Assembly (NCBI GenBank): GCA_013329055.1
Contig: DUKY01000013.1
Coordinates: 1,587 to 65,586, forward strand
Reading direction: 5' to 3'
Origin: Nanobdellota archaeon
GTDB lineage: Archaea > Nanobdellota > Nanobdellia > Pacearchaeales > GW2011-AR1
DNA length: 64,000 nt
Within the stretch, counting starts at the first letter, position 1. Each line of letters opens with the position of its first letter. Made by a program: the position numbers and the translations under genes. Shown here one piece after another: positions 6,984 to 47,173 of the stretch. Below the pieces are notes generated by a model that did no database searches, was not told where the DNA came from, and saw nothing but the letters and a program-made list of their open reading frames with translations.

Positions 6984-7017
6984 AATCCTCTAAAGTTTAC
7001 CTCCCTTATAATTTTAT

Positions 7018-8369: not shown

Positions 8370-9773
8370 TTATTCGTTAGATTGTTTTAAATGTAAAAAT
8401 GTCAAAAAACCAACATTGACAACAGATACACCTAAAACCATTATTAAAGTAATCATTGAAGTACTTAAAGACACCCCTAACCCGCTTATTTTCATCATCA
8501 TCAATAAAAGCATTAAAATCATCGGAGCAGCAATAACAACACTAATATAAATATCCATAAAAGTTTCAGCAGACTTTGTTTGTTTTTCTCTGTCAAGACG
8601 ATAATCAAAAAGTAAAGTTTGCGATCTTTTTTCGAAAAATTTTGTTAAATCACCACCGGAAGTAATTGTCGTCGCAAGACCATTAAATAATTCAGACAAT
8701 TTCGCACTAGGACTATGATATGCAGCATTTCGTAAAGCACTAACCAAATCATGACCATAAACATTAACTTCATTAATTATTTTAGTAAATTCTTTTTCTA
8801 AAAAGGGATAATTTTTCGTCGTCAGCATAATTTGAAAAATTTTACTAGGATCAACCATTGAACCGGCAATAGCAGACATATGAATAGTTGCAAAAGGCAA
8901 TTCACGATTAATCCCTGTTTCAATTGAACTTTTTTCTAAACTAGGATAAACATACATTAAAAGGAAAGTACCAATAGGAGCTGCAAAAATAATCCAAAAT
9001 GTTTTAATAAATCTATCAAGAATAGAACTATTCATAAGAGTAATTATCGGTAATTCAGGACCAATATTAAAAAACAAAAAAAACACAAACAAAAAAATAC
9101 CGATGAAAAAGGCAATCATTGTAGTAAGTAGCATAACAGAAATATAACTCATGGGTAAAAACTCTAAATTTGCCCGAATCAAATCCAATTTTAAAGTTTT
9201 AAAAAAATCATTCTTTTCCATAACTTTCGCTCGCTTTACAAAAAGAGAATTCGCAAATTTAACATATTTACTCGGAGTTTTTTCCATTTTTACAACAACA
9301 TCTTTTTTCTTATTAAGAAGATTCTTCAAACTTGCTTTTTCCAAATCAGTAATCCCTTCATGAAGTTTTTTTAAATCCCCACGAGAAAGTTTATTTTGAC
9401 GTGACTTTAAAGTTACTTTTTGTTTTTCTTCTTCTAATTTTACAGGAGTAATATTATTAAGATCTTTAATTTTATTAAACTGAGCTTCATCAAACTCAGA
9501 AAAATCACCGCCGATTTTTGAAGAAATTCCTAAATCAACTTTTGATAATTTTAAAGGCTGAACAAAATTAATATTATTAAGATGAACAGGAAATTTTTGA
9601 TTAACTAATTTTAAAGACTTTTTTAATTCCTCAACTTGAGATAAAGCCATTGTTTTTTCAGTTTTATCCTTCAAATTTTTCATATCTTTAAAAATTGAAT
9701 TAATTTCTTTAACAATTTTTTTTTGAGTTTTAATATCCTCCTTCATTGAACTAAAATCATTTGGAAGAGTCAT
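8370..9773 (-). CDS. type IV pilus/archaellum platform protein, FlaJ/PilC-like T2SS-F domain (first half) with a long soluble N-terminus
   Basis: 467 aa. The C-terminal half has TM segments and a T2SF-like core (..GHDLVSALRNAA..LFNGLATTITSGGDL..). Confidence 0.65.
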   Translation of the reverse strand: MTLPNDFSSMKEDIKTQKKIVKEINSIFKDMKNLKDKTEKTMALSQVEELKKSLKLVNQKFPVHLNNINFVQPLKLSKVDLGISSKIGGDFSEFDEAQFNKIKDLNNITPVKLEEEKQKVTLKSRQNKLSRGDLKKLHEGITDLEKASLKNLLNKKKDVVVKMEKTPSKYVKFANSLFVKRAKVMEKNDFFKTLKLDLIRANLEFLPMSYISVMLLTTMIAFFIGIFLFVFFLFFNIGPELPIITLMNSSILDRFIKTFWIIFAAPIGTFLLMYVYPSLEKSSIETGINRELPFATIHMSAIAGSMVDPSKIFQIMLTTKNYPFLEKEFTKIINEVNVYGHDLVSALRNAAYHSPSAKLSELFNGLATTITSGGDLTKFFEKRSQTLLFDYRLDREKQTKSAETFMDIYISVVIAAPMILMLLLMMMKISGLGVSLSTSMITLIMVLGVSVVNVGFLTFLHLKQSNE

Positions 9774-10006
9774 TTTAATGTTTGATCCATCCGTCCTTGG
9801 ACATCCAGAATATATTTTTTTAATTTATTAAACATTGCATAATCTTTTTTTTCATAAGACTCTTCCAGCCTTAATTCAGCTTCTTGCAAAGAATCAATTA
9901 ATTGACCCAAATAAATTGCTTTCTCTTCAGTTAAAATCGCCTCTTTCACCATTCTGTTTATTAAAGAATTATAATATAAAAAGGTTATGATATTATTCAA
10001 TACCAA
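9770..10006 (-). CDS. small coiled-coil protein (start possibly MVKEAIL at 9952)
   Basis: ORF between the ATPase and platform genes, coupled to the downstream gene by a 4-nt overlap. Confidence 0.3.
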   Translation of the reverse strand: MVLNNIITFLYYNSLINRMVKEAILTEEKAIYLGQLIDSLQEAELRLEESYEKKDYAMFNKLKKYILDVQGRMDQTLK

Positions 10007-11558
10007 ACTTTTCTAATATTTCTTTAGGATGTTTATAATAATCATTAACAGCTTTTTGAACTTCTTCAAAACCGGTAATTTTATTTTTATATAATTGATA
10101 AATTAATTTAACTCTTCGTTTAAACTCAAGATCAATCTCTTCAAAATTTAATCCATGTCGTTGAGCAATTTTAGTTAAAATCTTACTATCCCTTTTAAAA
10201 TAAAATTGATCATCAACAGGATTCCAAACAAATGGAGTGTTAGTAGTTGCAACACCTTCGGAAGAAACATTGATAACTTCAACAATTTCTTTTAAACGCC
10301 TGGTTTCTTGATTATTAACAATAGCATGAGTCATAATGCAAACACAATCTAAAACATTTAATAACGACGGAGATAATTCAATTGGAGGAGTTTCTAATCT
10401 CCTGATTACAGCATCAACAGAATCAGCGTGAATAGTACTAATTGATGAATGTCCTGAAGCCATACCCTGGAATAATACATACGCTTCTTTACCCCTTACT
10501 TCACCGACAATAACATAATCCGGATTTTGTCTAAAAGAACCTTTCAATAAAGTAAATAAATCTACTTCACCAATTTTCTTTGCACCAGTAGCACCTCTTG
10601 AAACACTAGGTAACCAATTATCCCTCGGTAAGTTTAATTCACGAGTATCTTCAATTGAAACAACCCTTGCTTCAGGAGGAATAAAGAAAGCCATGGCATT
10701 TAACAAAGTAGTTTTACCTGAAGAAGTACCACCAGCAATTAAGATATTCATTTTATATTGAACCATCATCCATAAATAAGCAAGCATTTCAGGACTTAAA
10801 GTATTAAAACCAATTAATTGAGGAGGAGTCCAGGGTGTTTTTGTAAATTTACGAATTGTAAAAGTTGGACCTTTACTTGAAATATCCTTAGTATAAGTTG
10901 CATTTACCCTGCTACCATCTGGCAAACTACCATCGAGAATAGGATCAGCATAAGAAATATATTTACCGCATCTTTGAGCCAATTTTTCAACAAAACCACC
11001 AAGTTTATCCAGATCTTTATACACCAAAGTAGTTTTTAAATTTCTAAAAACACGATGAACTAAATAAACAGGAGTAGTACCACCATTGCATTCAATATCT
11101 TCAACAAAATAATCCCTTAATAACGGTTCAATTTCATTAAATCCAATAAAATCCCGACATAGATAATAATAAATTTTTTTGTAACTTTCATAATCCATAG
11201 TCATTCCTAACTCAACAGCTAAAAATTTTAAACGCTTATCAATATGATCCAATAAAGATTCCTGATCATTTTCAACAACACTATCATAATTAATTAAACT
11301 CCTCATTGCAAGAAGTAATTGCTCAAGATACTTGCTTTCTTCCCGACTTAAAACAGGCTCCTCAATTTTATAAATAACCTCAGAAATTTTTGGATCCCAA
11401 TAAATATGAATATATGCAAAAGGTTCAATTACACAATATCTAACATTAATAGTTGTTTTATCCTTAACCTTCTTTAATGGAGGAATACTAGGAGTAAAGT
11501 TAATGTATACTCTTTCAAAGTTTTGTATTTCAGTGTTTGTATTTCCAGCAATTTCCAT
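9993..11558 (-). CDS. type II/IV secretion ATPase, FlaI/PilB (VirB11-like) family
   Basis: 521 aa with Walker A AGGTSSGKTTLLNA, a Walker B/Asp box (VVSIEDTRE) and a His box (GHSSISTIHA). Confidence 0.85.
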   Translation of the reverse strand: MEIAGNTNTEIQNFERVYINFTPSIPPLKKVKDKTTINVRYCVIEPFAYIHIYWDPKISEVIYKIEEPVLSREESKYLEQLLLAMRSLINYDSVVENDQESLLDHIDKRLKFLAVELGMTMDYESYKKIYYYLCRDFIGFNEIEPLLRDYFVEDIECNGGTTPVYLVHRVFRNLKTTLVYKDLDKLGGFVEKLAQRCGKYISYADPILDGSLPDGSRVNATYTKDISSKGPTFTIRKFTKTPWTPPQLIGFNTLSPEMLAYLWMMVQYKMNILIAGGTSSGKTTLLNAMAFFIPPEARVVSIEDTRELNLPRDNWLPSVSRGATGAKKIGEVDLFTLLKGSFRQNPDYVIVGEVRGKEAYVLFQGMASGHSSISTIHADSVDAVIRRLETPPIELSPSLLNVLDCVCIMTHAIVNNQETRRLKEIVEVINVSSEGVATTNTPFVWNPVDDQFYFKRDSKILTKIAQRHGLNFEEIDLEFKRRVKLIYQLYKNKITGFEEVQKAVNDYYKHPKEILEKFGIE

Positions 11559-12080
11559 TTAATCAACCTCAAAATCTAAGACGGTCAAATCATTTACTTT
11601 GCCCTCGTTAGATATAAATAATTTATAAGGAGTTGAACCTTTACTTAAAGTTTTTATAACATCCCCATTTTGAAATGTAAGGTTATACGCCTCACTATAA
11701 TCACTAGTCAAAGTCACTATATTAAGCTTTCCATTTTTTTCAGTATGAACTAAAATATCACCATAATAAATATCTTCTCCCGGTTCACTGTATGTATTTC
11801 TACTTTCAATTTCAAAAATTAATTTATCATTTTGTCCGTCGATCATTAAGATACCTTTTTTAATTCCTAATTCAATTTTACGTTTATTTCCTGCACCGCC
11901 ATGGACTAATGAAAGAACAATTGTATTAATATCCTCCATCATCCCAATAGACTGTTCAATAATAGCTTTATCTTGCATCTCTTCGACTTTAGGTTTAACA
12001 AAAGCTAAAACACTCCCGATCATAACAAAAGCGATTAAAGTATATATCACAGTTTCAACCCACACCTGACCTCTTTTCAT
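11559..12080 (-). CDS. type IV pilin-like protein (class III signal peptide)
   Basis: N-terminus MKRGQVWVETVIYTLIAFVMIG: a KRG-Q prepilin-type cleavage motif followed by a hydrophobic helix. Confidence 0.6.
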   Translation of the reverse strand: MKRGQVWVETVIYTLIAFVMIGSVLAFVKPKVEEMQDKAIIEQSIGMMEDINTIVLSLVHGGAGNKRKIELGIKKGILMIDGQNDKLIFEIESRNTYSEPGEDIYYGDILVHTEKNGKLNIVTLTSDYSEAYNLTFQNGDVIKTLSKGSTPYKLFISNEGKVNDLTVLDFEVD

Positions 12081-12301
12081 GATTAATTAAATAATATATC
12101 ATTTAAAAAATCTTCTAAAATTAAAAAAATAAAATTTTATTGGTCATAATAATTAATTTAAAAATAAAACAAATTTCTCGTCGATAATTTCAAAAAAATT
12201 GTTTTTCAAAAAGATTATTTAAAAATAATGCTCAGAAATTAAAATAAATTATACAAAAAATTTCATTCCACCAAAAGATTATTTAAAACCTAAATAAAAA
12301 A

Positions 12302-15081: not shown

Positions 15082-15123
15082 TTTAATTTACTTTTTAAAA
15101 TAAATCAATTAATTAAACATTTG

Positions 15124-15670
15124 CAAAAAATGCCACCCTTCAAGTATTCGAGGAGGTTCAAAAAAAAACAAGGGGTGTCTTTTACGCACGACAACATCAA
15201 TTTCAAAAAACATAATTGTCGTGCTTGTGATATCCAAGAAGGCTCAAAGAGATGCCACCCTTCAAGTATTCGAGGAGGTTCAAAAGAAACCAAGGGGTGT
15301 CTTTTACGCACGACAACATCAATTTCAAAAAACATAATTGTCGTGCTTGTGATATCCAAGAAGGCTCAAAGAGATGCCACCCTTCAAGTATTCGAGGAGG
15401 TTCAAAAGGAACCAAGGGGTGTCTTTTACGCACGACAACATCAATTTCAAAAAACATAATTGTCGTGCTTGTGGTATCCACGAAGGCTCAAAAAGATATC
15501 ACCCTTCCATGTTTCGAGGAGGTTCAAAAGGAACCAACGGGTGTCTTTCATGCACGACGGAATTAATCCTAAAATATAATCGTCGTGCTTGTGGTATCCA
15601 CGAAGGCTCAAAGAGATGCCACCCTTCAAGTATTCGAGGAGGTTCAAAAGGAACCAAGGGGTTCCTTTTA
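15124..15670 (+). repeat. tandem array (about 4.5 units, 122-nt period) of structured modules A+B
   Basis: The landmark tgccaccc/tatcaccc recurs at 15131, 15253, 15375, 15497 and 15617, giving periods of 122, 122, 122 and 120. Each unit has hairpin 1 (GUGRYAUY/RAURYCAC, 16-nt loop), a second helix (ACCCUU..AAGGGGU) and the hairpin B gcacgaca/tgtcgtgc. The fourth B copy has the compensated stem cacgacg/cgtcgtg. Confidence 0.95.
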
Positions 15671-15705
15671 GTAGACTCTGAGGTTTGCTCATAATTAATA
15701 AAAAA

Positions 15706-15928
15706 GCTACCTTCACCCATTCTCAGCTCTGCTACCTGCTAAGCACCTTATCAAATGTTTAGGGCTGCTTGGTTCCCCACCTGACCCAGTTCGCATCTGC
15801 AAGATCAAAGCAGACAAAGCGTCAACGTCTGGAATAAAGACTTTTTTACGCATTAATCACGCCCCTCATTGCAGCTTGCCATAAAGCCCGTTTGCAATAA
15901 AGCGGAGGGCTAATCCGCTACCTAGTCT
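15706..15928 (-). ncRNA. signal recognition particle RNA (7S/SRP RNA), short form; ends approximate
   Basis: The minus strand reads ..CUGGGUCAGGUGG-GGAA-CCAAGCAGCCC.., matching the universal helix-8 motif (compare E. coli 4.5S GGUCAGGUCC-GGAA-GGAAGCAGCC). The segment is much more GC-rich than its surroundings. A TATA-like cttaaatagtataatt lies upstream and a T-run at 15700-15705 lies downstream. Confidence 0.75.
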
Positions 15929-15983
15929 ACAAAAATATAGAATAATTATACTATTTAAGATTAACTAAACCAGAAAACTCTTC

Positions 15984-23082: not shown

Positions 23083-23318
23083 CGTGAAAGGGTCCCGAAT
23101 TTTATAAATTGTAAAGTAAAATCTAACTTAGATACGTTAATAACTTTACAATAATAAAAGTTATTAATTTTCCATTTAAAAACCTTTTGTTTTTGTCACT
23201 CACCAATTAAATATAAAGTTTTTGAAGCATTTTCAGTTATATTATCAAATTAGCCAAATTAGAAAATTAAATCTTTTATGAATAAATTTAAAAGTTATTA
23301 AAACAATTTTAAAATTAT

Positions 23319-23427
23319 GAACCTATAGCTCTGACTCAGCATCACGCTTGCATCAAGGGTTATAGGTCGGTTCGCGTAATACTTCGGTCTGGTTATTAAC
23401 CAGCCTTCGCGAATGGGTAAACAATAT
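23319..23427 (+). other. duplicated tRNA 5' end (13 nt) followed by a 96-nt relatively GC-rich structured segment
   Basis: gaacctatagctc at 23319-23331 is identical to tRNA positions 1-13 (23428-23440). The intervening sequence contains the hairpins ttcgcg..cgcgaa, ctggtt-att-aaccag and an acttcggt UUCG-type loop. A TATA-like tttaaaag lies about 32 nt upstream of 23319. Confidence 0.5.
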
Positions 23428-23553
23428 GAACCTATAGCTCAGTCTGGTTAGAGCGCCGGTCTTATATGAACTTAATCCATTTAGGATTATTTTATCTCAA
23501 TAGATACAGTCTAAGAGAGCCGGAGGCCCTGAGTCCAAATCTCAGTAGGTTCA
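23428..23553 (+). tRNA. tRNA-Ile (anticodon UAU) with a 51-nt intron at the canonical 37/38 position (23467-23517)
   Basis: Manual fold. Acceptor gaaccta/taggttc; D arm gctc-agtctggtta-gagc; anticodon stem ccggt/gccgg; loop c-t-TAT-a. A central 4-bp helix cuua/uaag flanked by 3-nt bulges (ua|u and ag|a) forms a bulge-helix-bulge. T arm ctgag-tccaaat-ctcag; discriminator a. No CCA is encoded. Confidence 0.8.
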
Positions 23554-23988
23554 TATATAATATTGCTTTGCAATATTATTTTACATTTAGAATTGGACAC
23601 TGAAAATTCAAAAAGATTTCCCTGAGGATAAATGACAACAAAACTTTTAATTCTAATCTGAAGCGAAAGCGAAGTTAAGTTTTGTGTCCCAAAGAATCTT
23701 TGATTCTTTGAGCTTCAATCTCAAACCTGAGTTGAAGCTGCCAAAAATTTCAAAGAAATTTTTTAGCACTCAGTAGGTTCATTTATAATATTGCTTTAGC
23801 AATATTATCAATTTCACTTAGAATTGGACCCTGAAAATTCAAAAAGATTTCCATGAGGACAAATAACAACAAAACTTTTAATTCTAATCTGAAGCGAAGG
23901 CGAAGTTAAGTTTTATGTCCCAAAGATTCTTTAGATTGCCAAAAATTTCAAAGAAATTTTTTAGCAGATATAATATTGCTTTTGCAAC
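23541..23988 (+). repeat. tandem duplication (228-nt period, 2 units plus a partial third) that starts inside the tRNA 3' end
   Basis: ctcagtaggttca (T-stem 3' strand, acceptor 3' strand and discriminator) occurs at 23541-23553 and again at 23769-23781. Each copy is followed by the hairpin taatattgc-ttt-gcaatatta and about 190 nt of near-identical hairpin-rich sequence. Copy 1 carries an extra agcttcaa..ttgaagct hairpin. A third tataatattgcttttgcaa starts near 23969. Confidence 0.85.
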
Positions 23989-26635: not shown

Positions 26636-26793
26636 AATATCACCACAATTGAGGAAGCTCAAAAACTTCAAAAGTATCGTCTTTTGAACGCGTTTAAATT
26701 TCAATGAAATTTAAATGCTAAAAATCTTTGATTTTTATGTCCCAGAAAATTTAATTCTACAAATTTTCTGAGGAAACCAGCGGGTGTCTTTTA
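26636..26793 (+). repeat. mosaic repeat: module A 3' part interrupted by hairpin modules G, H and others
   Basis: atatcaccacaattgaggaagctcaaaa | cttcaaaag-tatcgt-cttttgaa | tttaaatttca-atg-aaatttaaa | taaaaatc-tttg-attttta | cccagaaaattt..aaattttctgagg | gaaaccagcgggtgtctttta. The outer parts join up as in the PolB copy of module A. Confidence 0.8.
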
Positions 26794-26794
26794 T

Positions 26795-27028
26795 CTAGGA
26801 AAGTCTAACTAAACCTTTAGCCAATCTATGAGTTCCAATTAAAAGAAAAAAACCCAAAAATAATGATACCCAAAGGCTTAAAACAAGATTAGAAGGAAAT
26901 AAATAAATTTCAGACAAACCCCAAATGCCTCTCCAAAATGAAACTACTGCAAAAACCCCAATAAAAGCAAAAAGAATTTGGTGAGAAGATTTCATCTGCT
27001 TAAACAATTTATGTGTTTTATGAATCAT
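26795..27028 (-). CDS. small membrane protein
   Basis: 77 aa with two TM helices. The stop lies 2 nt from the end of the repeat. Confidence 0.4.
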   Translation of the reverse strand: MIHKTHKLFKQMKSSHQILFAFIGVFAVVSFWRGIWGLSEIYLFPSNLVLSLWVSLFLGFFLLIGTHRLAKGLVRLS

Positions 27029-27116
27029 AATAATAGATAAGATTCACTAATATTTAAATTTTATTCCTGTCTTCCGAATTTGTAAAAAGTAAAAATAAAT
27101 TTTTTGACTAATTTCT

Positions 27117-27196
27117 TTGGCAATTCAAGGTTTTTTTAAGGGAGGGGGGGGCTTTAGCCCAAACTTGAAGAGGGAATCCAAAAAAGATTTAAACCT
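27117..27196 (+). repeat. module D copy (variable hairpin between conserved flanks)
   Basis: tttggcaattcaagg..ttaaggga-ggggggg-gggct-tt-agccc-aaacttgaagagggaatcc. The same flanks occur at 33681-33747 and 39970-40095. Confidence 0.7.
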
Positions 27197-27225
27197 TAAT
27201 CTAAAAATTTTTACAAAGCCCACAT

Positions 27226-27423
27226 TCAATATTTTGGTCCATCAAACTTAAATTTTATTTTTCCTAAATCATATAACTGATCTACCTTTAATTTTTCATA
27301 TAAATATGGATCTTCTTCAGGTTCTCTTCCCAAATTATCACAAGCCCTTAAATAATTAACATCACGATTTGATAATCCTTTTTGCAACAATCTTTCCTGA
27401 ATAATTTTATTCTTAATTTTCAT
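27226..27423 (-). CDS. hypothetical small protein
   Basis: 65-aa ORF only. Confidence 0.3.
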   Translation of the reverse strand: MKIKNKIIQERLLQKGLSNRDVNYLRACDNLGREPEEDPYLYEKLKVDQLYDLGKIKFKFDGPKY

Positions 27424-27650: not shown

Positions 27651-27708
27651 AAGAAGATTACTTTCAATTCTAATACATATTTAAATATTCCAAATCATTT
27701 TTAAAATA

Positions 27709-30270
27709 ATGAAAACAAAATTCATTCCAATTGACTACGATTACTTTGATTTTAAAGGAAGAAATTACATTAAAATAATTGGCAGAGACGACAATCAAAA
27801 AAGAATTTGCATTATTGACACCTGCAAAGTTTACCTCTGGGCAATACTTGAAGAAAATTTAAAAAAAGATCAAATTGAAAAAATAATCGATAAAATAAAA
27901 AAAATAAAAATTGAATTAAAGGGAAGAACAACAAAAATTGATTCAGTTGAACTCCATGAAAAAAATTTCATGGGAAGAAAAGTTAAAGCACTCAAAATTT
28001 TTGCAACAAACTATAAAGATCTTCACGATGTCGCAGATAAATTAGACATTAAAGAAATAACAAATAGAAGGGGATATGATTTAGGATATATTACACATTA
28101 CATAATTGAAAAACAAATTAAACCTCTTAATTGGTATGAAATTTCAGGAGAAGTTTTAAACAATTCATTAGAATTTGGAGGAATTGATATGGGACTTGAC
28201 GTTGACATTTGTATAAAACTTGAAACTTCAAAAGAAATAAAAGACCAGCAATTTAATCCAAAAATTTTAGCTTATGACATTGAAACAGATGAATTACAGA
28301 TAGGCAAAGGAGAAATTTTAATGATCTCATTAGTCAGCGAAAATTTCAAAAAAGTAATTACATGGAAAAAACCTCAAAATTTACAAAAACATCGTGACAT
28401 TACAGGAGGCTCAGAAAAATGTCACCGTTCAGAACTTCGAGGAAGCTCAAAAGAAACCAGCGGGTGTCTTTTAGAATCTATAGAATTTGTAAAAGACGAA
28501 GCAGAACTAATAGAAAAATTTATAGAACATGTAAGAAAAATTTCTCCGGATTTTTTAGTAGGTTATTATTCAGACGGATTTGATTTACCATATATTCAGG
28601 CACGGGCAGAAAAGCATAAAGTAAAACTAGCACTGGGGTTAGATGATTCACAACCCAGATTTTCAAGAGGGATAGAACTCACAGGAAAAATAAAAGGAAT
28701 CACACATATTGACATATTAAAATTCATCAGAACAGCATATGCCCAATATATGAAATCCGAAACACTTTCATTAAACGAAGTTGCAAAAGAATTTTTACAG
28801 GACACGAAAATTGATTTTGAATTAAAACACTCTTCAAAAATAGAAGACCATAATTGGGAGAAGTATTATGAATATAACTTACAGGATTCAATTTTAACAT
28901 TAAAACTTTTCGAAAAGTTTTGGCCGGATTTATTAGAATTTACAAAGATAACAAATGAACCAATCTTCGATTTATCACGTGCAGGATTATCAAAATATAT
29001 GGAATCTTATATCTTGCAAAACTTAAATAAATTTAATGAAATCCCACAAAAAAGACCTGGATACAATGAAATAAAAGAAAGGCAATCAAGTGGTGGAGTA
29101 GAAGGAGCATTTGTCTTAGAACCCAAACCAGGACTTTATGAAAATATCGCAATGTTTGATTTTACATCTATGCATACAAGTATAATCATAACACACAATA
29201 TTTCAGGTTCAACTTTATTAGAAAAAAAAGAAAAAAATTGTTTTGAATCCCCTGAACTGGAATTGCAGGGAAAAAAAACAAAATTTTATTTTTCAAAAGA
29301 AAAAGGATTTTTCCCGTCATTATTAGAAGAATTATTTAACAAAAGAAAACAATATAAAGCAGAATATAAAAAAAATAAAAATTCAATTACACTTGCAAGA
29401 AGTAATGCATTTAAAGTTCTTTCAGCTTCAGCACACGGCTATTTAGGATTTTTTGGAGCACGATATTATTCTATTGAATCTTCAGCATCAGTCTTAGCAT
29501 ATGTAAGAAAATTTAATATAGAGACAATAGAAAAAACAGAAAAAAAAGGATATCAGGTGATTTATGGCGATACAGATTCAATAGCATTTTTAATGAATGG
29601 AAAAACAAAAGAAGAAATAAAAGAATTATTGCAATACTTAAATGACGAACTTCCGGGAGTAATGCATTTAGAACTTGAAGGATTTTTTAAAAGAGGTTTG
29701 TGGGTAACTACACGAGGAGGAACAACAGGAGCAAAGAAAAAATATGCCTTGCTTGATGAAGAAAATAATTTGAAAATAAGAGGATTTGAAACAGTAAGGC
29801 GTGATTGGTGCAGATTATCCCGGGACATACAAAATAAAATTATAAGACAGATATTAAAAGACGGGAATGAAATCAAAGCTCTTGAATCTGTCAAAGAGCT
29901 AATTAAAAAAATTAAAGAACGAAAAATTGACAAAAAAGATTTAATGATTAGAACACAACTAAAAAAACCAATTTCAGAATATAAAGCTATTTCACCGCAT
30001 GTTATCGCCGCGAAAAAAATGAAAGAACAGGAAATCCCGGTTACACAGGGAGATTTAATAGAATATTATATAGCTGAAACAGAAAACAAAAAAGCAAAAC
30101 TTGTTAGAGAAAAAGTAAAACTTCCAAATGAAAAAGGAGAATACAACATTGAATATTATCTTGAAAAACAAATTTTACCGGCAGTAGAAAATATTTTTCA
30201 TGTATTTAAAATAAATATAAAAGAAATAATTGACGGAAAAAAGCAGGATAATTTAAATAAATGGTTTTAA
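27709..30270 (+). CDS. polB: family B DNA polymerase
   Basis: 853 aa with Exo I LAYDIETDE, Pol A DFTSMHTSIIITHN, Pol C VIYGDTDSIAF and a C-terminal PIP box QDNLNKWF. Confidence 0.95.
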   Translation: MKTKFIPIDYDYFDFKGRNYIKIIGRDDNQKRICIIDTCKVYLWAILEENLKKDQIEKIIDKIKKIKIELKGRTTKIDSVELHEKNFMGRKVKALKIFATNYKDLHDVADKLDIKEITNRRGYDLGYITHYIIEKQIKPLNWYEISGEVLNNSLEFGGIDMGLDVDICIKLETSKEIKDQQFNPKILAYDIETDELQIGKGEILMISLVSENFKKVITWKKPQNLQKHRDITGGSEKCHRSELRGSSKETSGCLLESIEFVKDEAELIEKFIEHVRKISPDFLVGYYSDGFDLPYIQARAEKHKVKLALGLDDSQPRFSRGIELTGKIKGITHIDILKFIRTAYAQYMKSETLSLNEVAKEFLQDTKIDFELKHSSKIEDHNWEKYYEYNLQDSILTLKLFEKFWPDLLEFTKITNEPIFDLSRAGLSKYMESYILQNLNKFNEIPQKRPGYNEIKERQSSGGVEGAFVLEPKPGLYENIAMFDFTSMHTSIIITHNISGSTLLEKKEKNCFESPELELQGKKTKFYFSKEKGFFPSLLEELFNKRKQYKAEYKKNKNSITLARSNAFKVLSASAHGYLGFFGARYYSIESSASVLAYVRKFNIETIEKTEKKGYQVIYGDTDSIAFLMNGKTKEEIKELLQYLNDELPGVMHLELEGFFKRGLWVTTRGGTTGAKKKYALLDEENNLKIRGFETVRRDWCRLSRDIQNKIIRQILKDGNEIKALESVKELIKKIKERKIDKKDLMIRTQLKKPISEYKAISPHVIAAKKMKEQEIPVTQGDLIEYYIAETENKKAKLVREKVKLPNEKGEYNIEYYLEKQILPAVENIFHVFKINIKEIIDGKKQDNLNKWF
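28375..28473 (+). repeat. module A copy inserted in frame in polB
   Basis: Hairpin gtgacatt/aatgtcac (28394-28401/28418-28425, 16-nt loop acaggaggctcagaaa) followed by ccgttcagaacttcgaggaagctcaaaagaaaccagcgggtgtctttta. It is translated as ..GGSEKCHRSELRGSSKETSGCLL... Confidence 0.85.
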
Positions 30271-30279
30271 AATAAAAAC

Positions 30280-31686
30280 TTAAGTATGAAGAATATTATT
30301 TAATGGATAAAGCATTTCCTTTAATTTTTCTTTATCTAATTTACTTAATGGGTCATCTTTATAATCTTCTATAAATTTTTCTTTAAAAAAATCAACATTC
30401 TTTAATGATTCATTCATTAATTCCTTCCATTCTTCACCAAAAAAATCTTTATAGACATAATAAGTTATATGAATTGCTTTTTTTATTTTTTCTAAATCAT
30501 CAAGTTCTTGAACATGTTTATATTGTTTAAGACTTAACTCATTTAATTTTGTTGTTAATTGCTCAATCTCTTCCAAAGTTAAAACTTTTCCATCTGCAAT
30601 GATTAACGTATATTTAAGTTTCTTTTTAACATCATCCATTATTCTCAATCTTCCTGAAATATCCATATCATATTTAGTATCATTCTCAAATATTCGATAT
30701 ATGGATATTTTTTTAACAGAACATTCTTTTGTATGTTCCCAAATCTCCAAAGGTTTTTGATTATAAAATTCATCTATAAACAACTTTCCTTGTTTATCCT
30801 TGTAAGTTATTTCATAGGGTCCATGACTGGTACTGCCATAAGCTGCAAAAAGATCATAATATATAGCCCAGTTATAATAAAATTGAGCTATTTTAAAAGC
30901 AGAAAATGTCATAAAGATTTTCTCTTCTTTTGTGTTGAAAAAATCATAATTTAATATCTCATTAATTTTGTCGTATTCAAAATATTTTCTTTCTAATGGT
31001 TTTGTTAAAAAATTTGAATCTTTTAATTTTATTATTTTAAAAAAATCATTAAAAAATTTTTCTCTTTCATAAATTTCAGTTTTAAAATCCGTAAATTCAT
31101 GTGCCACTTTAAAACTTACACATGCAAAATTAAATAAAAAATCAATAATCATATCAGTATTCTCAAAAAGATCTGCAATTTGTTTGTCTGAATAACCCTT
31201 ATCTTTCAATTCATAAAATCGCTTATAAAAATGCTTGATTACTTCAGATTCATAATAAGAAAGAATTTGGATAGGACTAAATGGCCAATACTCTTTTCCT
31301 TTTAATCTTGCCATTGTTTTTAATAAACCTTCAGTAAAAAGATCTATTTTATTTTCTTTTTTGTAGATTGTCCCACTATTTGCATCCATGAAAATTTTAT
31401 CACCTGTTTGCAATTTTTGTATTTCTTTTTCACCAATTCCTACAATACATGGAAGCCCTGCTTCTCTTGCAATTATCGCGGCATGACTAGCAATTCCCCC
31501 AATTGCGGTGATAATTCCTTTGCATTTTCCCATTATCAGAGTATAAGAAGGATCAGTTGTGATTGAAACAAGGATTGCTCCTTCCTTAAATTTAACAAGA
31601 TCTTCAAAAGACTTAACGATAAATATTTCTCCATCAACTTGTCCCAAAGAAGCTGTAACACCCTTAATTGTTATTTCTGATTCCAT
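30280..31686 (-). CDS. PEP-utilising-enzyme mobile (phosphohistidine swivel) domain protein with an unassigned 370-aa C-terminal region
   Basis: The N-terminal roughly 95 aa (..GIITAIGGIASHAAIIAREAGLPCIVGIG..) is the swivel domain. The remainder has no motif I recognise. Confidence 0.5.
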   Translation of the reverse strand: MESEITIKGVTASLGQVDGEIFIVKSFEDLVKFKEGAILVSITTDPSYTLIMGKCKGIITAIGGIASHAAIIAREAGLPCIVGIGEKEIQKLQTGDKIFMDANSGTIYKKENKIDLFTEGLLKTMARLKGKEYWPFSPIQILSYYESEVIKHFYKRFYELKDKGYSDKQIADLFENTDMIIDFLFNFACVSFKVAHEFTDFKTEIYEREKFFNDFFKIIKLKDSNFLTKPLERKYFEYDKINEILNYDFFNTKEEKIFMTFSAFKIAQFYYNWAIYYDLFAAYGSTSHGPYEITYKDKQGKLFIDEFYNQKPLEIWEHTKECSVKKISIYRIFENDTKYDMDISGRLRIMDDVKKKLKYTLIIADGKVLTLEEIEQLTTKLNELSLKQYKHVQELDDLEKIKKAIHITYYVYKDFFGEEWKELMNESLKNVDFFKEKFIEDYKDDPLSKLDKEKLKEMLYPLNNILHT

Positions 31687-31695
31687 TTTATCTAG

Positions 31696-32265
31696 CTAAA
31701 ATTTTGAAATATCATTTATGTATAAAAAATCAAATCCTGCATTTTTTGCAGCATTTTCATCTCCCTCATTATCTCCAACTAATAACACGGTTTCCGGCAA
31801 AATTATTTTATTATATTTCATTTCTGCTTTTTTTCTTAATTCATCCCCAATTATCGACGAAGGTTTTGAAAATCGTCTTGCAATTTTATCATAATCTTTA
31901 TCATGTATTTGATAAGGCCCATCTCCAAAAATTTCTTCCCATGCTTTTTTATGTGAAAGCCCAATTAACGAAGAATCAATTTTATCTCTTAATTTTGATG
32001 ATGCAATAAAATTAATTGCATATTGATAAGCAAATGAACTCCAAATCCCAATTGGAACTTGATGAGCATAAAAGTAATCAATTACCTCTTCTCCTTCTTT
32101 CGTAAGTTGCAACATTGGATCTTTTGCTAAAAGTTCTAAAGCATTACTTCTAATAACTTCAATTCCTCTGGAAGAATACAATTCATTTTTACTAAACAAA
32201 GTTTCCTCTAAGTCACACAATATTAGATTATACTCTTGAGGATTTCTATTTATATTTGTTTTCAT
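31696..32265 (-). CDS. HAD-superfamily hydrolase-like protein
   Basis: Motif I-like LILCDLEETLF (DxE instead of DxD) and motif IV LLVGDNEGDENAAKNAG. Confidence 0.45.
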   Translation of the reverse strand: MKTNINRNPQEYNLILCDLEETLFSKNELYSSRGIEVIRSNALELLAKDPMLQLTKEGEEVIDYFYAHQVPIGIWSSFAYQYAINFIASSKLRDKIDSSLIGLSHKKAWEEIFGDGPYQIHDKDYDKIARRFSKPSSIIGDELRKKAEMKYNKIILPETVLLVGDNEGDENAAKNAGFDFLYINDISKF

Positions 32266-32369
32266 TTAATTACCTTACAATAGTAACATGAACAAATCTT
32301 TTAAATTTATTTGATAGTATACCTTATATTTTTAGTTAATTTTATAAATATACCTTAATTATTTCATTT

Positions 32370-32855
32370 ATGCCAATAGGTAAACCATTAAAATTAAGGG
32401 ATATAGACGAAAAAGATAAAAAAATAATTATGTTGCTTCAAGAAGATGGAAGAATGCAATTAAACAAAATCTCTAAAAAAGTCGGCTTATCTATTGATTC
32501 AGTACATAAAAGAATTAAAGAGATGCTAAAAAAAAGGATTTTTGAAACAGGCATTTTTATTGAACCAAGAGCTTTAGGTTACCCACTTATTGCAGATATT
32601 AAAATTAAATTAAAAAATGTCAGTAAAGAAGAAAGGGGTAAATTTATTTTATATTTACAAAAACATAAAAGATGTATAGAACTACTTTCTATTTTAGGAG
32701 ATTTTGATTTTACTTGCGTATTAATTGCTAAAGATAGTAATGATTTAGATGAAATATCTACTGAAATTCGGCAAAAGTTTAAAGATTTAATTTTAGAATG
32801 GAAAGGACTATTAATTTTAAAACAATATAAATTTGAAAGATATGATTTATTATAA
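32370..32855 (+). CDS. Lrp/AsnC family transcriptional regulator
   Basis: N-terminal HTH LD.KDKKII.LLQEDGRMQLNKISKKVGLSIDSVHKRIKEM followed by a RAM-like C-terminal domain. Confidence 0.75.
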   Translation: MPIGKPLKLRDIDEKDKKIIMLLQEDGRMQLNKISKKVGLSIDSVHKRIKEMLKKRIFETGIFIEPRALGYPLIADIKIKLKNVSKEERGKFILYLQKHKRCIELLSILGDFDFTCVLIAKDSNDLDEISTEIRQKFKDLILEWKGLLILKQYKFERYDLL

Positions 32856-32859
32856 AATT

Positions 32860-33603
32860 TTAAATTCCATGCAACATTTCTAAGAAGAATCTCATTAAGA
32901 TTATTGTCAAAATAAAAATTAATGCACCAAGAATTAAACGTTTTTTATCTTCATGCCCATTCATAGAAGGGATGATGTCAGACATTGCAATATACAAAAA
33001 TCCCCCTGCAGCAATTAAAACAGCATAAGGTGAAAAAGACTCAATCATATCAAACATAAAAAAACCTAAAATACCACCCAAAATAGCTGAAAGTGCAGAC
33101 ACAAAATTCAAGAATAATGCTCGACTTTTAGTATAACCGCTATGCATCAAGACTGCAAAATCTCCAAATTCTTGTGGAATTTCATGAATTAAAACAATAA
33201 AAGAAGTAACAATACCAGTAGTAAAATCCAGCATAAAAGCACCTGCAATTAAAACACCATCAATAAAATTATGCACAAAATCTCCTGTTAAAATTAAAAG
33301 ACCAGTAGGCTTATGACATTTTTCTTTACCACAATGATGCCAATGTATAAATTTTTCCAGAATAAAAAATAAAACAATTCCAAAAACAACAAATATAAAA
33401 CCAGTTTCAATATCTACCCCAAACTCTTCAATTTCGATTAATGCATGAGGGATTAAATCAAAAAATGTTGCAGCAATTAAAGTTCCGGCAGCAAATGCAA
33501 TAAAATAATACAAAAATTTTTGTATTTTGTTTGAACTAATTATAATTCCAACTAAACTAATTAAACTAACTATAAAAGTTGCCAAAATAATCCACCAAAT
33601 CAT
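32860..33603 (-). CDS. ZIP-family (ZupT-like) metal transporter
   Basis: Polytopic, with HNFIDGV and HEIPQEFGDFAVL motifs. The start is trimmed to MIWWIIL (ATG 33603) because the longer ORF runs into the module D repeat. Confidence 0.75.
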   Translation of the reverse strand: MIWWIILATFIVSLISLVGIIISSNKIQKFLYYFIAFAAGTLIAATFFDLIPHALIEIEEFGVDIETGFIFVVFGIVLFFILEKFIHWHHCGKEKCHKPTGLLILTGDFVHNFIDGVLIAGAFMLDFTTGIVTSFIVLIHEIPQEFGDFAVLMHSGYTKSRALFLNFVSALSAILGGILGFFMFDMIESFSPYAVLIAAGGFLYIAMSDIIPSMNGHEDKKRLILGALIFILTIILMRFFLEMLHGI

Positions 33604-33648
33604 ATTAAAAATTATGGAAAGGCGTTTAAATATCTTATGACCAAATAT

Positions 33649-33779
33649 GCTCTGCCCAGAGTTTTTGATTTTAGCTAACTTTTGGCAATTCAAATATTTA
33701 TTAAGGGCGGGCCTTTCGACAAATGTCGAAACTTGAAGTGGGAATCCTAAAATCAAAAAAACCTAATTCTGGACAGAGC
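33649..33779 (+). repeat. module D copy bounded by imperfect inverted repeats (MITE-like)
   Basis: The left arm gctctgcccagagtttttgattttag (33649-33674) is the imperfect reverse complement of the right arm ctaaaatcaaaaaaacctaattctggacagagc (33747-33779). The core is ttggcaattcaaatatttattaagggcggg-[tttcgaca-aa-tgtcgaaa]-cttgaagtgggaatc. Confidence 0.8.
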
Positions 33780-33824
33780 CGACCAAACAGATTCTTTAAA
33801 AAAGGGATTATTCTTAATAATTTT

Positions 33825-34913
33825 ATGAGTTTTCAAAAAATACCGGAATTAAAACCATTATATTTGGAAAGAATAACGTCAATATTAAACAACAAAGAAG
33901 ATTTAAAGAAATATTTAGAAATCTTAAAAATTCAACCTGTTAAATCAATTAGATGTAATACATTAAAAATTTCAGTTGAAAAATTAAAAGAAGTTCTTGA
34001 AAAAAAAGGATGGGTTATATCTCAACCATGGAAAGACTTTCCTGAAGTAATGATTGTTGAAGGTAAACTTCAGGATTGTGGCATTACAGGAGGCTCAACA
34101 AAATGCCACCGTTCAGACCTTAGAGGAAGTTTGAAAGAAACCAGCGGGTGTCTTTCACCTGAAGTAATGATTGTTGAAAATCAATTAGAACCTGGAGAAT
34201 TAGGTCGGTCACTAGAACATTTATTAGGTTATTATTACATTCAGGAACTTTCAAGTATGTTGCCAGTAATTGCACTTCAACCAAAAGAAGGAGATATCAT
34301 TTTAGATTTATGTGCCGCACCGGGAAGTAAAACAACACAAAGTGCATCTTTAATGCAAAATAAAGGAACAATAATTGCAAATGAAGTAAATATGGGAAGA
34401 TTAATGGTTTTAGCATCAAATCTTGAAAGATGCGGAGTAACAAATACAATAATCTCAAGAAAAGATGGATCAGCATTATGCAAAAAATTCGCAAATGGAG
34501 AAATCAAATTTGACAAAATTTTAGTTGATGCACCATGTTCAGGAGAAGGAACATTAAGAAGTTCAAGACAAACTTATCTTATGTGGAATATAAAAACAAT
34601 CCAGCAATTATCAAAATTACAAAAACAATTATTCAAATCAGCATTCGAGATATTAAAAATAAATGGAGAAATGATTTATTCAACCTGCACTCATGCACCG
34701 GAAGAAAATGAAGAAATTGTTAGTTGGGCATTAGAGGAATTTAAAGACCAAATAAAAATTGAAAAAATTAATTTGCCAATAAAACCCAGACAAGGATTAA
34801 CAAAATGGGAAGATAAAGAATATTTCGAAGAAGTAAAATATAGTTGCAGAATTTATCCGCAGGATAACAATACAGAAGGATTTTTTCTTGCAAAATTCAA
34901 AAAAATAAAATGA
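33825..34913 (+). CDS. NOL1/NOP2/Sun-family RNA cytosine-C5 methyltransferase
   Basis: DLCAAPGSKT, ILVDAPCSGEGTLR and IYSTCT motifs. The start is trimmed to MSFQKIPEL (ATG 33825) because the upstream extension lies in repeat D. Confidence 0.85.
   Translation: MSFQKIPELKPLYLERITSILNNKEDLKKYLEILKIQPVKSIRCNTLKISVEKLKEVLEKKGWVISQPWKDFPEVMIVEGKLQDCGITGGSTKCHRSDLRGSLKETSGCLSPEVMIVENQLEPGELGRSLEHLLGYYYIQELSSMLPVIALQPKEGDIILDLCAAPGSKTTQSASLMQNKGTIIANEVNMGRLMVLASNLERCGVTNTIISRKDGSALCKKFANGEIKFDKILVDAPCSGEGTLRSSRQTYLMWNIKTIQQLSKLQKQLFKSAFEILKINGEMIYSTCTHAPEENEEIVSWALEEFKDQIKIEKINLPIKPRQGLTKWEDKEYFEEVKYSCRIYPQDNNTEGFFLAKFKKIK
34041..34178 (+). repeat. module A copy inserted in frame in the methyltransferase gene, flanked by a 21-bp direct duplication
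   Basis: cctgaagtaatgattgttgaa occurs at 34041-34061 and again at 34158-34178 (offset 117 nt, 39 codons; the protein shows PEVMIVE twice). Between them lie the hairpin gtggcatt/aatgccac (34078-34085/34102-34109) and ..aaagaaaccagcgggtgtctttca. Confidence 0.9.
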
Positions 34914-44325: not shown

Positions 44326-44827
44326 AAAAATTTAATTCTACAAATTTTCTGAGAGAACCAACAGATTCACATTCTATGTGGCATCCCAAGAAGGCCGAAA
44401 GTTTACACTTACATTAATCCCAAAGGTAAAGATAAAAGCTGTAAGTGTGGGCTTGAGTAGAAAGTTTACACTTGCATTAAATTCTGAAAGCAAATTTTAA
44501 AAGTTGCAAGTGTGGGCTTGAGTAAAGATATCACCGCTCCGCAATTTGAGGAAGCTCAAAAGACCAAGGGTGTCTTTTACGCACGACGACATGAATTCTA
44601 AAATATAATCGTCGTGCTTGTGGCATCCAAGAAGGCTCATAAAGATGCCACCCTTCAATGTTTCGAGGAGGGTTAAAGGGAACCAAGGGGTGTCTTTTAC
44701 GCACGACAACATCAATTTCAAAAAACATAATTGTCGTGCTTGTGGCATCCACAAAGGCTCATAATGATGCCACCGAACCGCAATTCGAGGAGATTCAAAA
44801 AGAACCAACGGGTTCTTTTTATCCGAA
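44326..44827 (+). repeat. large mosaic repeat block: H fragment, an A interrupted by two tandem C modules, then B, A, B, A
   Basis: The stem halves gtggcatc (44378-44385) and gatatcac (44527-44534) are separated by C copies at 44397-44458 (stem acacttac/gtaagtgt) and 44459-44523 (acacttgc/gcaagtgt). The following B hairpins are cacgacga/tcgtcgtg and cacgacaa/ttgtcgtg. An intact A hairpin is gtggcatc/gatgccac at 44620-44627/44644-44651. Confidence 0.9.
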
Positions 44828-47173
44828 ATAACTATTATCCTGAGGAATCGCAGCCCTTGCTGACTCTAAGAATTTATCCTCAATCTTTTTATAAGTTTCA
44901 ATAGTAGATTTACTCACGCTAGGCTTAACCTTTTTCAAAGCCTCATCAAAATGTTTTTTCCAAACTTCAACAGCATCAACAGATTCTCTTAAAGCAAGCA
45001 TCGCAGCCTCCCTAACTAATGCTTCCAAATCAGCCCCGGTATAACCTTCAGTTTGTTTAGCAAGTTCACTAATAATAACATCTTTTGCTAAAGGAGTTTT
45101 AACAGTATGAATATCCAAAATCATCTTCCTACCTTTTTCAGAAGGAGCATTAATAAGCAAAATTTTATCAAATCTTCCGGGACGTAAAATTGCAGGATCC
45201 AATAAATCAGGACGATTAGTAGTTGCAACAATTAAAATATCCTTTAAATCTTCTAAACCATCCATATCAGATAATAATTGATTCAAAACTTTCACCCCCT
45301 CTTGACCTGACGCATTGTCAACCATACCACGCTTACTAGCGATTGACTCAATCTCATCAATTAAAACGATACATGGTGAAACTTGTCTCGCTTTCTCAAA
45401 AACTTTAGCAACACCCTTATGCGAATCATTAACCCATTTACTCAATAATGAAGGACCCTTAACGGAAATAAAATTAACATCAGATTCTTTTGCAGCCGCC
45501 TTAGCCAAAAGAGTTTTACCTGTACCAGGAGGACCATAAAGTAAAACACCTTTAGGAGGACGAACATTCAATCGCTTAAAACCTTCAGGATGTTTCATAG
45601 GCCATTCAACAGCTTCTTTTAATTCCCTTTTAACATCATCAAGCCCACCGACAGAATTCCAATCAACATTTGGAGTTTCAACTAAAACTTCCCTCATAGC
45701 AGAAGGTCTGACAACTCTTAAAGCATCAGTAAAATCCTGTGCAGTAATAACTAATTTTTCCAAAATTTGCGGGGAAATTTGTTCTTCAGAATCAAGTTTC
45801 ATCTCAGGCAGTAACTTTCTTAAAACATTCATAGCAGCTTCCTTGGTTAATGATTCCAAATCTGCACCAACAAATCCGTGCGTAACTTGAGCAAGTTTAA
45901 CTAAATCAACATCTTTAGTTAAAGGCATGCCACGAGTATGAATTTTTAAAATTGCTAATCTACCTTCTTTATTAGGAACCCCAATTTCAATTTCTCTATC
46001 AAATCTACCAGGACGTCTTAAAGCAGGATCAATAGCATTAACTCTATTCGTCGCACCAACAACAATAACTTTACCCCTGGCCTTTAAACCATCCATCATA
46101 GTTAAAATTTGAGAAACAACTCTTCTTTCAACCTCGCCATGAACCTCTTCACGCTTAGGAGCAATAGCATCAAGTTCATCAATAAAAATAATTGTCGGAG
46201 CAGTTTTTTCAGCTTCATCAAAAATATCCCTAATCTTTTTTTCACTCTCACCATAAAATTTAGACATAATTTCCGGACCATTTAACAAGATAAAATTTGC
46301 TTCAGATTCATTTGCAACAGCTTTAGCTAAAAGAGTTTTACCAGTACCAGGAGGACCATAAAGTAAAACACCTTTTGGAGGCTCAACACCTAACCGTTGA
46401 AAAATTTCAGGATGTTTCATCGGTATCTCAACCATTTCCCTAATTTTTTTAATCTCTTCACTTAAACCACCAATATCTTCATAATTAATTTCAGGGATAT
46501 TATCTGAACTAACATCAACTGCTTTAGAATTTAAAACTACCTCAGTATTCTCGGTAATTATCACAGGCAGACAAGGATTAGTTGAAACAACAATAAATCG
46601 AATTTGAGTAACACCCCCACCTAAATTACCCATGCCCATACCCCCTAAAATATCTCCAAGGTTGCCAAAAATATCATTTAAATCACCCATGCCTTCAGAC
46701 ATTAAATCTTTTCTTCTTTGCACACCCCCTAAAATTACAACATCTCCCTTAACCAAAGTTCTTCCTAAAAGTCCTCTTCGTAAACTATCAGGGTCTCCCT
46801 GAACCATAATTCCTTGCTGAGCAGGAGCAATAATAACTTTTTTTGCTTCATGAACATTCGCTTTAGAAATTTGAACAACATCGCCTAATCCTGCACGAGC
46901 ATTTTTTCTTAAAATACCATCAATCCTTATTCTTCCTTCACCAATATCTGCAGGATAAGACCTATCAGCAATAGCAACAGTTTCACGATTACCCTTAATT
47001 AAAATAACATCACCACGCTTAATGCCTAATTCCCTCATAACTTCAGAATCAATACGGGCAATTCCTTTATACGCATCATCCTGTAAAGCTTCTACAACAA
47101 TCAATTCAAATTTTTGATTTTTACTCTTGCTGTTATCTGCTTTTTTATCTTTATCTTTATTCTTATCTTTCAT
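44819..47173 (-). CDS. cdc48: CDC48/VCP-type AAA+ ATPase (paralog 2)
   Basis: 784 aa with GPPGTGKT twice, an N-domain ([16 protein letters not shown]) and a Gly-rich insert ([11 protein letters not shown]). The last codons, YFG-stop, lie in the repeat. Confidence 0.9.

Follow-up and report, generated by a model that had tools for sequence, protein, structure and literature searches.

We analyzed a 64,000-nucleotide (nt) stretch of contig DUKY01000013.1 (assembly GCA_013329055.1) from a Nanobdellota archaeon (GTDB Pacearchaeales, GW2011-AR1), referred to below as the window, in which the family B DNA polymerase gene polB (27709–30270, + strand; Pfam DNA_pol_B_exo1 and DNA_pol_B) carries an additional block of sequence. 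The block is a copy of a short repeat with two predicted hairpins, here called module A, and it is probably a recently inserted copy of a small, non-autonomous mobile repeat of Pacearchaeota-type DPANN archaea. The initial annotation of this DNA had proposed a module A copy inside polB at 28375–28473. Our data bear this out, as the 81-nt core (28391–28471) was recovered both as a member of repeat family D3 and by nhmmer with E = 3e-24. The sequence and the place given there were right; comparison with the nearest relative, the metagenome contig L083 (Ga0208373), refined the limits of the block, a 5′ filler followed by the module A copy, to 28380–28473.

L083 is syntenic with the window from 21.7 to 36.3 kb at 93–97% DNA identity. 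Its polB encodes a block-free protein of 823 amino acids that reads WKKSKTKN|ESIEFVKDE across the site, and blastn aligned its positions 5950–6670 with window positions 27660–28379 and its positions 6679–11852 with 28474–33645. Relative to this empty site the block adds a net 87 nt, or 29 codons, with an exact 3′ junction at 28473|28474 and a fuzzy 5′ junction. No match to module A was found anywhere in L083. Because the site is empty in so close a relative, the block is an insertion, and a recent one. A further strain, L082 (independent ENA assembly ERZ4902887; 97.5% DNA identity to the window), carries the polB insert, which excludes the assembly chimera that the initial annotation had raised as an alternative. 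The window and L082 polB genes differ at 26 nt, and the L082 protein (P0001) scored 100% identical to the window PolB over 100% of the latter, indicating strong purifying selection on the insert-bearing gene; polB has been kept as one open frame under purifying selection since the insertion. The closest insert-free protein of the first homolog search, P0004, had no contig on record, and L083 then came from a metagenome contig scan. Apart from the empty site in L083, most PolB orthologs are also insert-free, in agreement with the insertion proposed from the window alone.

The polB orthologs found by homolog search are Pacearchaeota and Nanoarchaeota PolB proteins, typically of 818–824 amino acids. 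The window protein has 853 amino acids, and its cluster holds 20 member sequences in public data. As had been proposed, the block is read through in frame, as ..WKKPQNLQKHRDITGGSEKCHRSELRGSSKETSGCLLESIEFVKDE.., within a single open frame. Among 120 PolB homologs, all from Pacearchaeota or Nanoarchaeota metagenome-assembled genomes (MAGs), the linker between ..VITWK and YVEYVKDE.. usually has 5–8 residues, and the window PolB has ~30 more, the number that had been estimated by comparison with a short linker in Pyrococcus PolB. That comparison was right: the linker has 3 residues (176–178) in Pyrococcus furiosus (Pfu) PolB and 34 in the window PolB. The mapping onto a PolB structure that had been suggested was done by sequence alignment to solved structures, and it places the insert between Pfu PolB residues 175 and 179, in the turn after the strand ..VITWK, which follows the Exo I motif of the 3′–5′ exonuclease domain.

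An AlphaFold2 model of the window PolB reached a predicted local distance difference test (pLDDT) score of 68.5, with residues 220–256 (the insert) below 50. This model is only moderate and is poor over the whole exonuclease domain. The insert could be a disordered surface loop, a plausible but weakly supported reading, as much of the exonuclease domain also has a pLDDT below 50. We propose that the element is retained in the mRNA and translated as ~29 hydrophilic residues (..RDITGGSEKCHRSELRGSSKETSGCLL..), which would sit in the β-turn between the VITWK and VEFV strands and be tolerated there as a floppy surface loop. Translation is our best inference because open frames are kept, indels are multiples of three, and polB has been under purifying selection since the insertion. 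Predicted tryptic peptides across the insert include DITGGSEK, SELR/GSSK, and ETSGCLLESIEFVK.

A second in-frame copy, which the initial annotation had missed, lies 5.6 kb downstream of polB in the gene for an RsmB/F (NOL1/NOP2/Sun-type) RNA methyltransferase, here called Sun or RsmF (33723–34913, +; Pfam PF01189 and PF17125, and an ortholog alignment). It is read in the same frame as the polB copy, as ..CGITGGSTKCHRSDLRGSLKETSGCLS.., and belongs to a 96-nt insertion (34062–34157) made up of 15 nt of filler and a module A copy at 34075–34155. The insertion is bracketed by two copies of the 21-bp sequence cctgaagtaatgattgttgaa at 34041–34061 and 34158–34178. In L083, this 21-mer occurs once (12106–12126, blastn) and the intervening 96 nt are missing; the duplicated PEVMIVE is also missing from five other Sun orthologs in the alignment. 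The Sun locus is a textbook filled and empty pair with a target-site duplication. Among the window copies, the one in Sun is the most similar to that in polB.

The junctions of the two recent events have features in common. Both have an exact 3′ junction and 13–15 nt of 5′ filler, within which 8 nt of the downstream target recur in inverted orientation. In polB, the filler contains TTTACAAA (28380–28387), which is missing from the empty site and is the inverted copy of TTTGTAAA (28486–28493), a stretch of target lying 12 nt downstream from the 3′ junction; none of 500 shuffles reached a match of 8 nt. In Sun, ACTTCAGG (34067–34074) likewise repeats, in inverted form, the target CCTGAAGT, which lies at the junction (p ~0.04). 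Judged against L083, 21 bp of target were duplicated in Sun and none in polB. Strand is uniform within each of the four contigs that carry module A at several sites (the five sites of the window and three other contigs). No target duplications or inverted flanks above chance were found at the older in-gene copies.

The exact 3′ junctions, the fillers with inverted 8-mers, the variable duplication, and the uniform strand led us to propose a copy-in mechanism with snap-back synthesis. New copies would arise when a +-strand template, either RNA or single-stranded DNA, is copied in, with priming from a nick at the 3′ junction; snap-back synthesis along the primer strand would end the copying, and replication forks are a possible setting. 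This is the most speculative and least secure part of our interpretation. Once inside a gene, a copy would persist, as only a precise deletion could remove it, and intergenic copies would decay.

The hairpins of module A are preserved in the polB copy. Hairpin 1 (28394–28425) consists of a 5′ arm GTGACATT (28394–28401), a 16-nt loop (28402–28417), and a 3′ arm AATGTCAC (28418–28425), compared with GTGGCATC/GATGCCAC or GTGATATC/GATATCAC around a loop of equal length in intergenic copies. The fully compensated stem and the same loop that the initial annotation had reported are thus confirmed. The 3′ hairpin (28449–28472) consists of AAAAGA, AACCAGCGGGTG, and TCTTTT, as predicted by RNAalifold and in the minimum free energy fold. 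RNAalifold was run on 14 copies, namely those of the window and the polB copies of four other lineages, and predicted an 8-bp hairpin 1 and a 6+3-bp 3′ hairpin, with compensatory changes at five of the eight pairs of the former and at four pairs of the latter. Across 78 copies from ~30 genomes, the pair types of hairpin 1 are close to evenly divided (UA 40 and CG 35; AU 40 and GC 32; UA 35 and AU 32). The stem versions encountered are GTGACATT/AATGTCAC, GCGGCTTT/AAAGCCGC, GCGACTTC/GAAGTCGC, GCGATTTC/GAAATCGC, and GCTGTTTC/GAAACAGC. Our results show that both stems are kept by compensatory changes. In the 78 copies, G·U outnumbers A·C by 19 to 5, which favors the + strand as the one that folds.

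No Rfam 15 family corresponds to module A; a scan of the window at gathering thresholds and an E-value scan of the array described below gave only tRNA and signal recognition particle (SRP) RNA. A small open reading frame starting from an ATG in the 3′ arm of hairpin 1 was considered as a conserved feature and dropped, as the ATG is missing in the L001 and L003 copies. Readings of module A as a C/D-box or H/ACA RNA were dropped by eye, the box motifs varying among copies.

The window is AT-rich (~28–30% G+C) and its genes are of the DPANN/Pacearchaeota housekeeping type, including those for RNA polymerase subunits, FEN1, PolB, CDC48, and Ala-tRNA synthetase. Module A has a core of ~81 nt and measures ~90–96 nt as inserted. 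Repeat finding gave 11 full 81-nt copies in the window, and nhmmer with a profile built from the window copies gave 13 significant copies, all 13 on the + strand whatever the orientation of the neighboring genes. A 20-mer of the hairpin-1 loop is expected to occur 0 times by chance and was observed twice. Outside the two genes, copies detected by both methods form an intergenic cluster at 7012–7372 (+), in which one copy is split by a different repeat, module C, in its hairpin-1 loop; a tandem array of modules A and B with a 122-nt period and five module A copies at 15102–15674 (+), which abuts the 3′ end of an SRP RNA gene; and an intergenic cluster at 44347–44828 (+) with copies of modules A, B, and C. 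A 3′-end fragment detected by nhmmer lies at 26771–26798 (+), in an intergenic stretch whose length is 201 nt in the window, compared with 111 nt in L083.

Module C, a 64-nt hairpin (acacttgc..gcaagtgt), is present at 7100–7254 and 44380–44590. It lies within the hairpin-1 loop of module A copies, once in the former region and as two tandem units in the latter, one module having been inserted inside the other. Module B is a 41-nt hairpin. The array and the neighboring archaeal SRP RNA gene (15669–15932, − strand) together occupy 15102–15932; the array stops precisely at the 3′ end of this gene, which scored 89 bits against RF01857, slightly below the gathering score of 96.5.

Beyond the window, module A is a multi-copy family across many genomes and contexts. 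A degenerate pattern of the 3′ half, run against GTDB species representatives, gave 73 loci in ~30 DPANN MAGs, nearly all of them Pacearchaeota, Woesearchaeota, or “Nanoarchaeia,” several with many copies; DATDUI01, JBAZOZ01, and CAYITA01 are among the high-copy MAGs. Most copies are intergenic and have no consistent orientation relative to the flanking genes; a terminator or promoter role for them was dropped, as their orientation to neighboring genes is patternless. Read-through copies in PolB come from at least 10 lineages and occupy two sites and two frames. The main site holds such copies in the window, L001, L003, L004, L005, L006, L010, L031, L125, and L156, and a deleted remnant in L137. 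The second site, before the Exo I DIETD motif, is filled in L130 (2504–2564) and is read in a different frame (..MQLQPKCKKEVALPHFEERAREKQGVLSQ..). In RsmF, the window and the distant MAG L055 carry copies in a shared hypervariable linker.

In-gene copies were also found in two other protein families. In MGMT/Ogt-type proteins, L046 (3746–4120, −) and L073 (6672–7055, −) have a copy between NKNP and the PCHRV active site; there, the 3′ end of the element encodes hydrophobic residues, ..FFLV, ahead of the catalytic cysteine. In Kae1/TsaD, L041 (6018–7121, −) has an antisense copy that is read through near the C terminus (AKRHPLVSFELPRSTERRFPNASDEIAQ). Copies within genes of different genomes are highly similar across the unrelated PolB, RsmF, MGMT, and Kae1. 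Every one of them leaves the frame open, the readings being three in number (two in the sense direction and one antisense), and the polB copies have indels in multiples of 3. Some genomes gave a single match, the polB copy, and no module A outside polB was found in ~750 kb of sequence flanking 80 further polB loci.

On a neighbor-joining tree, whose deep branches are poorly resolved, the insert-bearing PolB proteins are scattered, each with insert-free sisters. Related ~30-residue segments occupy the same loop in Pacearchaeota PolB proteins that are only ~70% identical. The polB copies of L001, L003, L004, L005, L010, and L031 count among one another's nearest matches. The window polB copy, which lies two codons upstream of the junction of the other lineages, has as its nearest matches the Sun copy of the same genome and intergenic copies of a related MAG rather than other polB copies. 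One clade has inserts of 45, 25, 20, 12, and 8 residues, which look like stepwise erosion (the P0053/P0059/P0056 series), and the L006 and L137 copies have in-frame internal deletions. This history is best read as a series of insertions into one turn that then persisted for long and slowly decayed in frame.

The PolB turn also houses small inserts of other kinds. An unrelated 54-nt double hairpin is identical there in L086 (3830–3883) and L092 (1301–1354), and other peptide types recur at the turn across clades (P0048/P0058, P0043/P0049, and P0037/P0056/P0059). The turn seems to serve small repeats generally as a place to insert.

Several points weigh against our interpretation of module A as a mobile repeat recently inserted in polB. 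Identity between the polB and Sun copies is 81% when the flanks are aligned too and 88% over the 81-nt core. They are more diverged than the host strains, so that their donor copies are unseen. The junction signature comes from two events only, one with a 21-bp duplication and one without. No mobilizing enzyme was found in the window or between the paired copies of L009 and L019: Pfam detected no transposase, integrase, reverse transcriptase, or HUH enzyme among the window open reading frames of at least 90 amino acids (50 of 55 covered), and the paired same-strand copies of L009 and L019, ~3.2 kb apart and considered as the ends of an autonomous element, bracket housekeeping genes only. Translation of the insert is a step we infer from sequence, and the PolB model is poor across the whole exonuclease domain, not only at the insert. 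Finally, random insertion and tolerance alone seem insufficient to account for the recurrence of the loop at ~70% identity; both recent events struck genes that are also occupied in lineages that distant. Less probably, module A would be a site-targeting, copy-in element rather than a passively tolerated insertion. Its + strand RNA or single-stranded DNA would be copied into nicks, for example at replication forks, by target-primed snap-back synthesis and would home again and again to the PolB exonuclease turn, the RsmF linker, and the MGMT active-site strand across DPANN archaea, a reading that we think unlikely. If this were true, it would represent a new archaeal class of retroposon-like or replication-coupled elements that remodels essential proteins.

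The recurrence in PolB, RsmF, and MGMT could also reflect selection rather than tolerance, with the element co-opted as a structured RNA or single-stranded DNA signal within the coding region. It might then serve as a binding site, as an mRNA stability or translation-pausing element, or as a regulator of replication and repair genes. The stems are compensated within genes as well as outside them, distant lineages have copies in the same loops of nucleic-acid enzymes, and in some genomes the sole copy detected is in polB. In the 14-copy alignment, moreover, a T3 run (TCTTTC or CTCTC) closes five of the six in-gene copies; the window polB copy has T4 and most intergenic copies have T4–T5. However, the T3 trend is not general, since both MGMT copies and L055 have T4–T5. 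L083 and most orthologs do without the element, copies erode by in-frame deletion (in L006, L137, and the series described above), the intergenic copies have no consistent position or orientation relative to genes, and compensated stems would be equally expected if mobility itself needs hairpins. We therefore regard co-option as improbable. A different source of the recurrence would be passage of the insert from polB to polB, and from Sun to Sun, by lateral transfer and patch homologous recombination, a homing-like process without an endonuclease. The patchy distribution on the PolB tree with the same junction by Y/F-VEYV, the frequent “WKKP..” linker of insert-bearing proteins, the mutual closeness of the six polB copies named above, and the ~750 kb of polB flanks without module A all fit such transfer. 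It is nevertheless quite improbable. The nearest relatives of the window copy are the Sun copy of its own genome and intergenic copies of a related MAG, and its junction is two codons off that of the other lineages; nor is the 21-bp duplication in Sun a product of recombination, and near-identical copies occur in the unrelated Kae1, MGMT, RsmF, and PolB.

Two remaining alternatives concern the nature of the block itself. It might be removed or skipped before it reaches the protein, as a bulge-helix-bulge intron, by other RNA excision, or by ribosomal bypass of the kind known from the mitochondrial “byp” elements of Magnusiomyces. The compact, GC-rich hairpin make-up of the element within an AT-rich gene would suit this, the flanks of both recent insertions can pair across the element, and patchy occurrence at one site is what mobile introns typically show. 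Yet relaxed bulge-helix-bulge motifs in six in-gene copies are no commoner than in shuffles, do not occur in L003 or L005, and vary in position, and Rfam gave no match. All in-gene copies keep an open frame in each of the three readings and polB indels are multiples of 3, neither of which a removed or skipped element would need, making removal or bypass very improbable. An intein was ruled out. Inteins have a Hint domain, an N-terminal Cys/Ser, and a C-terminal His-Asn followed by Cys/Ser/Thr, and measure at least ~130 residues; the insert of 29–31 residues begins ..HRDI, ends ..GCLL|ES, and contains no Pfam intein domain. That the segment is an ancestral PolB loop from which the repeat family derives, or an assembly artefact, is scarcely credible. 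Similar peptides do occur at the same loop in distant PolB proteins, and the initial annotation had regarded such segments in genomes lacking the repeat as a reason to reject an insertion. They are superficially of this kind, being found in ~70%-identical Pacearchaeota, some with no other copy detected, but they do not refute the insertion because they are DNA-level copies with covarying stems and the window copy is demonstrably recent. The empty site in the syntenic L083, the insert in the independent L082 assembly, the insert-free state of most orthologs, and the 20 public members of the 853-residue cluster all argue against both variants. We consequently retain the interpretation of the polB block as a recent copy of a mobile repeat.

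Several observations in the window lie apart from these questions. A 178-nt block upstream of polB (27070–27247) is missing in both L082 and L083 and weakly resembles window positions 33681–33770 and sequences of a related MAG; it is probably another strain-specific repeat insertion. A tRNA gene with an ~55-nt intron at 23428–23553 (+) was found by Rfam and missed by ARAGORN. The 5′ half of this tRNA is partly duplicated near 23319, and its 3′ end together with downstream DNA is repeated at 23581–23701 and 23812–23932, with a spacing of 231 nt. The segment bearing it (window 23300–23950; L083 1537–1679) is inverted in L083 relative to the flanking synteny. One CDC48 paralog (44822–47173, −) has 784 amino acids, with ~36 extra residues within the CDC48_2 match to the Pfam profile, and the other has 744; blastn found no repeat module in the 784-residue paralog.

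Among known systems, the closest likeness is to the Rickettsia palindromic elements (RPEs), an analogy that the initial annotation had drawn and that proved apt. Both are small, structured, multi-copy repeats found between genes and in frame within unrelated housekeeping genes, in the case of module A those for PolB, RsmF, MGMT, and Kae1. Both add a hydrophilic peptide at positions compatible with the fold, persist in orthologs, and occur in host-dependent organisms with reduced genomes. RPEs have been described as an extreme case of in-frame fusion of MITEs, or miniature inverted-repeat transposable elements (2024 review, PMC10969869). The two differ in host, an archaeon for module A and an alphaproteobacterium for RPEs; in length, ~81–96 nt compared with ~100–150 bp; and in structure, two separate hairpins compared with one long palindrome. 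Unlike RPEs, module A is often arranged in tandem mosaic arrays, shows recent activity through empty and filled sites, and hits the same loops repeatedly. By analogy, we file module A as a functional archaeal counterpart of the RPEs, a new family in another domain of life and not a member of theirs; we expect no relationship between the two in sequence. Our full-text literature search found no such elements described in archaea.

MITEs such as the Correia, ERIC, Sulfolobus SM, and Haloquadratum elements are likewise small, non-coding, non-autonomous, and multi-copy, and some are intragenic and in frame; a survey reported high MITE densities for DPANN genomes, a Woesearchaeal one among them (PMC11602168). 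Module A differs from them in having no fixed-length target duplication (21 bp in Sun, none in polB, none at older copies). No related insertion sequence or transposase was found in the 64-kb window or between the paired copies of L009 and L019. Terminal inverted repeats were not seen by eye, no formal scan being made; the ends GTGRCATY.. and ..GGGTGTCTTTT are not inverted copies of each other, and predicted pairing stays within each half of module A rather than running end to end. Hairpin repeats without terminal inverted repeats are found among the repetitive extragenic palindromes (REPs), their bacterial interspersed mosaic elements (BIMEs), and the palindrome-associated transposable elements (PATEs) of the IS200/IS605 type. 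The mosaic tandem arrays of module A are BIME-like, and its strand-specific orientation, with the 13 window copies on one strand and uniformity in three other multi-site contigs, resembles that of single-stranded DNA elements moved by HUH transposases, as do its two hairpins. REPs, however, are extragenic by definition, and the 21-bp duplication in Sun and the 5′ filler of both events are not products of HUH transposition. Such transposition fits the strand bias but neither the duplication nor the filler. No conserved 4–5-nt flanking target was seen by eye, and no TnpA, RAYT, TnpB, or HUH transposase was found in the window by Pfam or between the L009 and L019 copies. The GC clusters, double-hairpin elements, and “byp” elements of fungal mitochondria are GC-rich hairpin mobile elements of very AT-rich genomes that invade intergenic DNA, variable regions of rRNA, and sometimes protein genes. 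That system is organellar, and the ribosome skips byp, whereas the in-gene copies of module A keep an open frame; homology between them is not expected. Together, these comparisons appear to set module A apart from the RPE family, classical MITEs, REPs and PATEs, introns, and inteins.

Structured repeats read in frame within essential genes are a textbook oddity of Rickettsia. DPANN archaea are a lineage with reduced genomes that is host-dependent as far as its cultivated members show. The same behavior in DPANN suggests that such insertions are a general outcome of genome reduction combined with selfish repeats. For module A, the signs that it was recently active in essential genes are unusually clean, and the recurrence of its sites is unexplained. 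The window, L082, and L083 form a natural before-and-after set for two insertions into such genes. This makes testable how these repeats move in archaea, whether they are translated, and what 30 residues do beside the Exo I strand or the MGMT cysteine. For gene callers and annotators, such low-complexity loops of 25–40 residues in PolB, RsmF, MGMT, and Kae1 of DPANN MAGs should be read as repeat insertions and not as lineage-specific domains.

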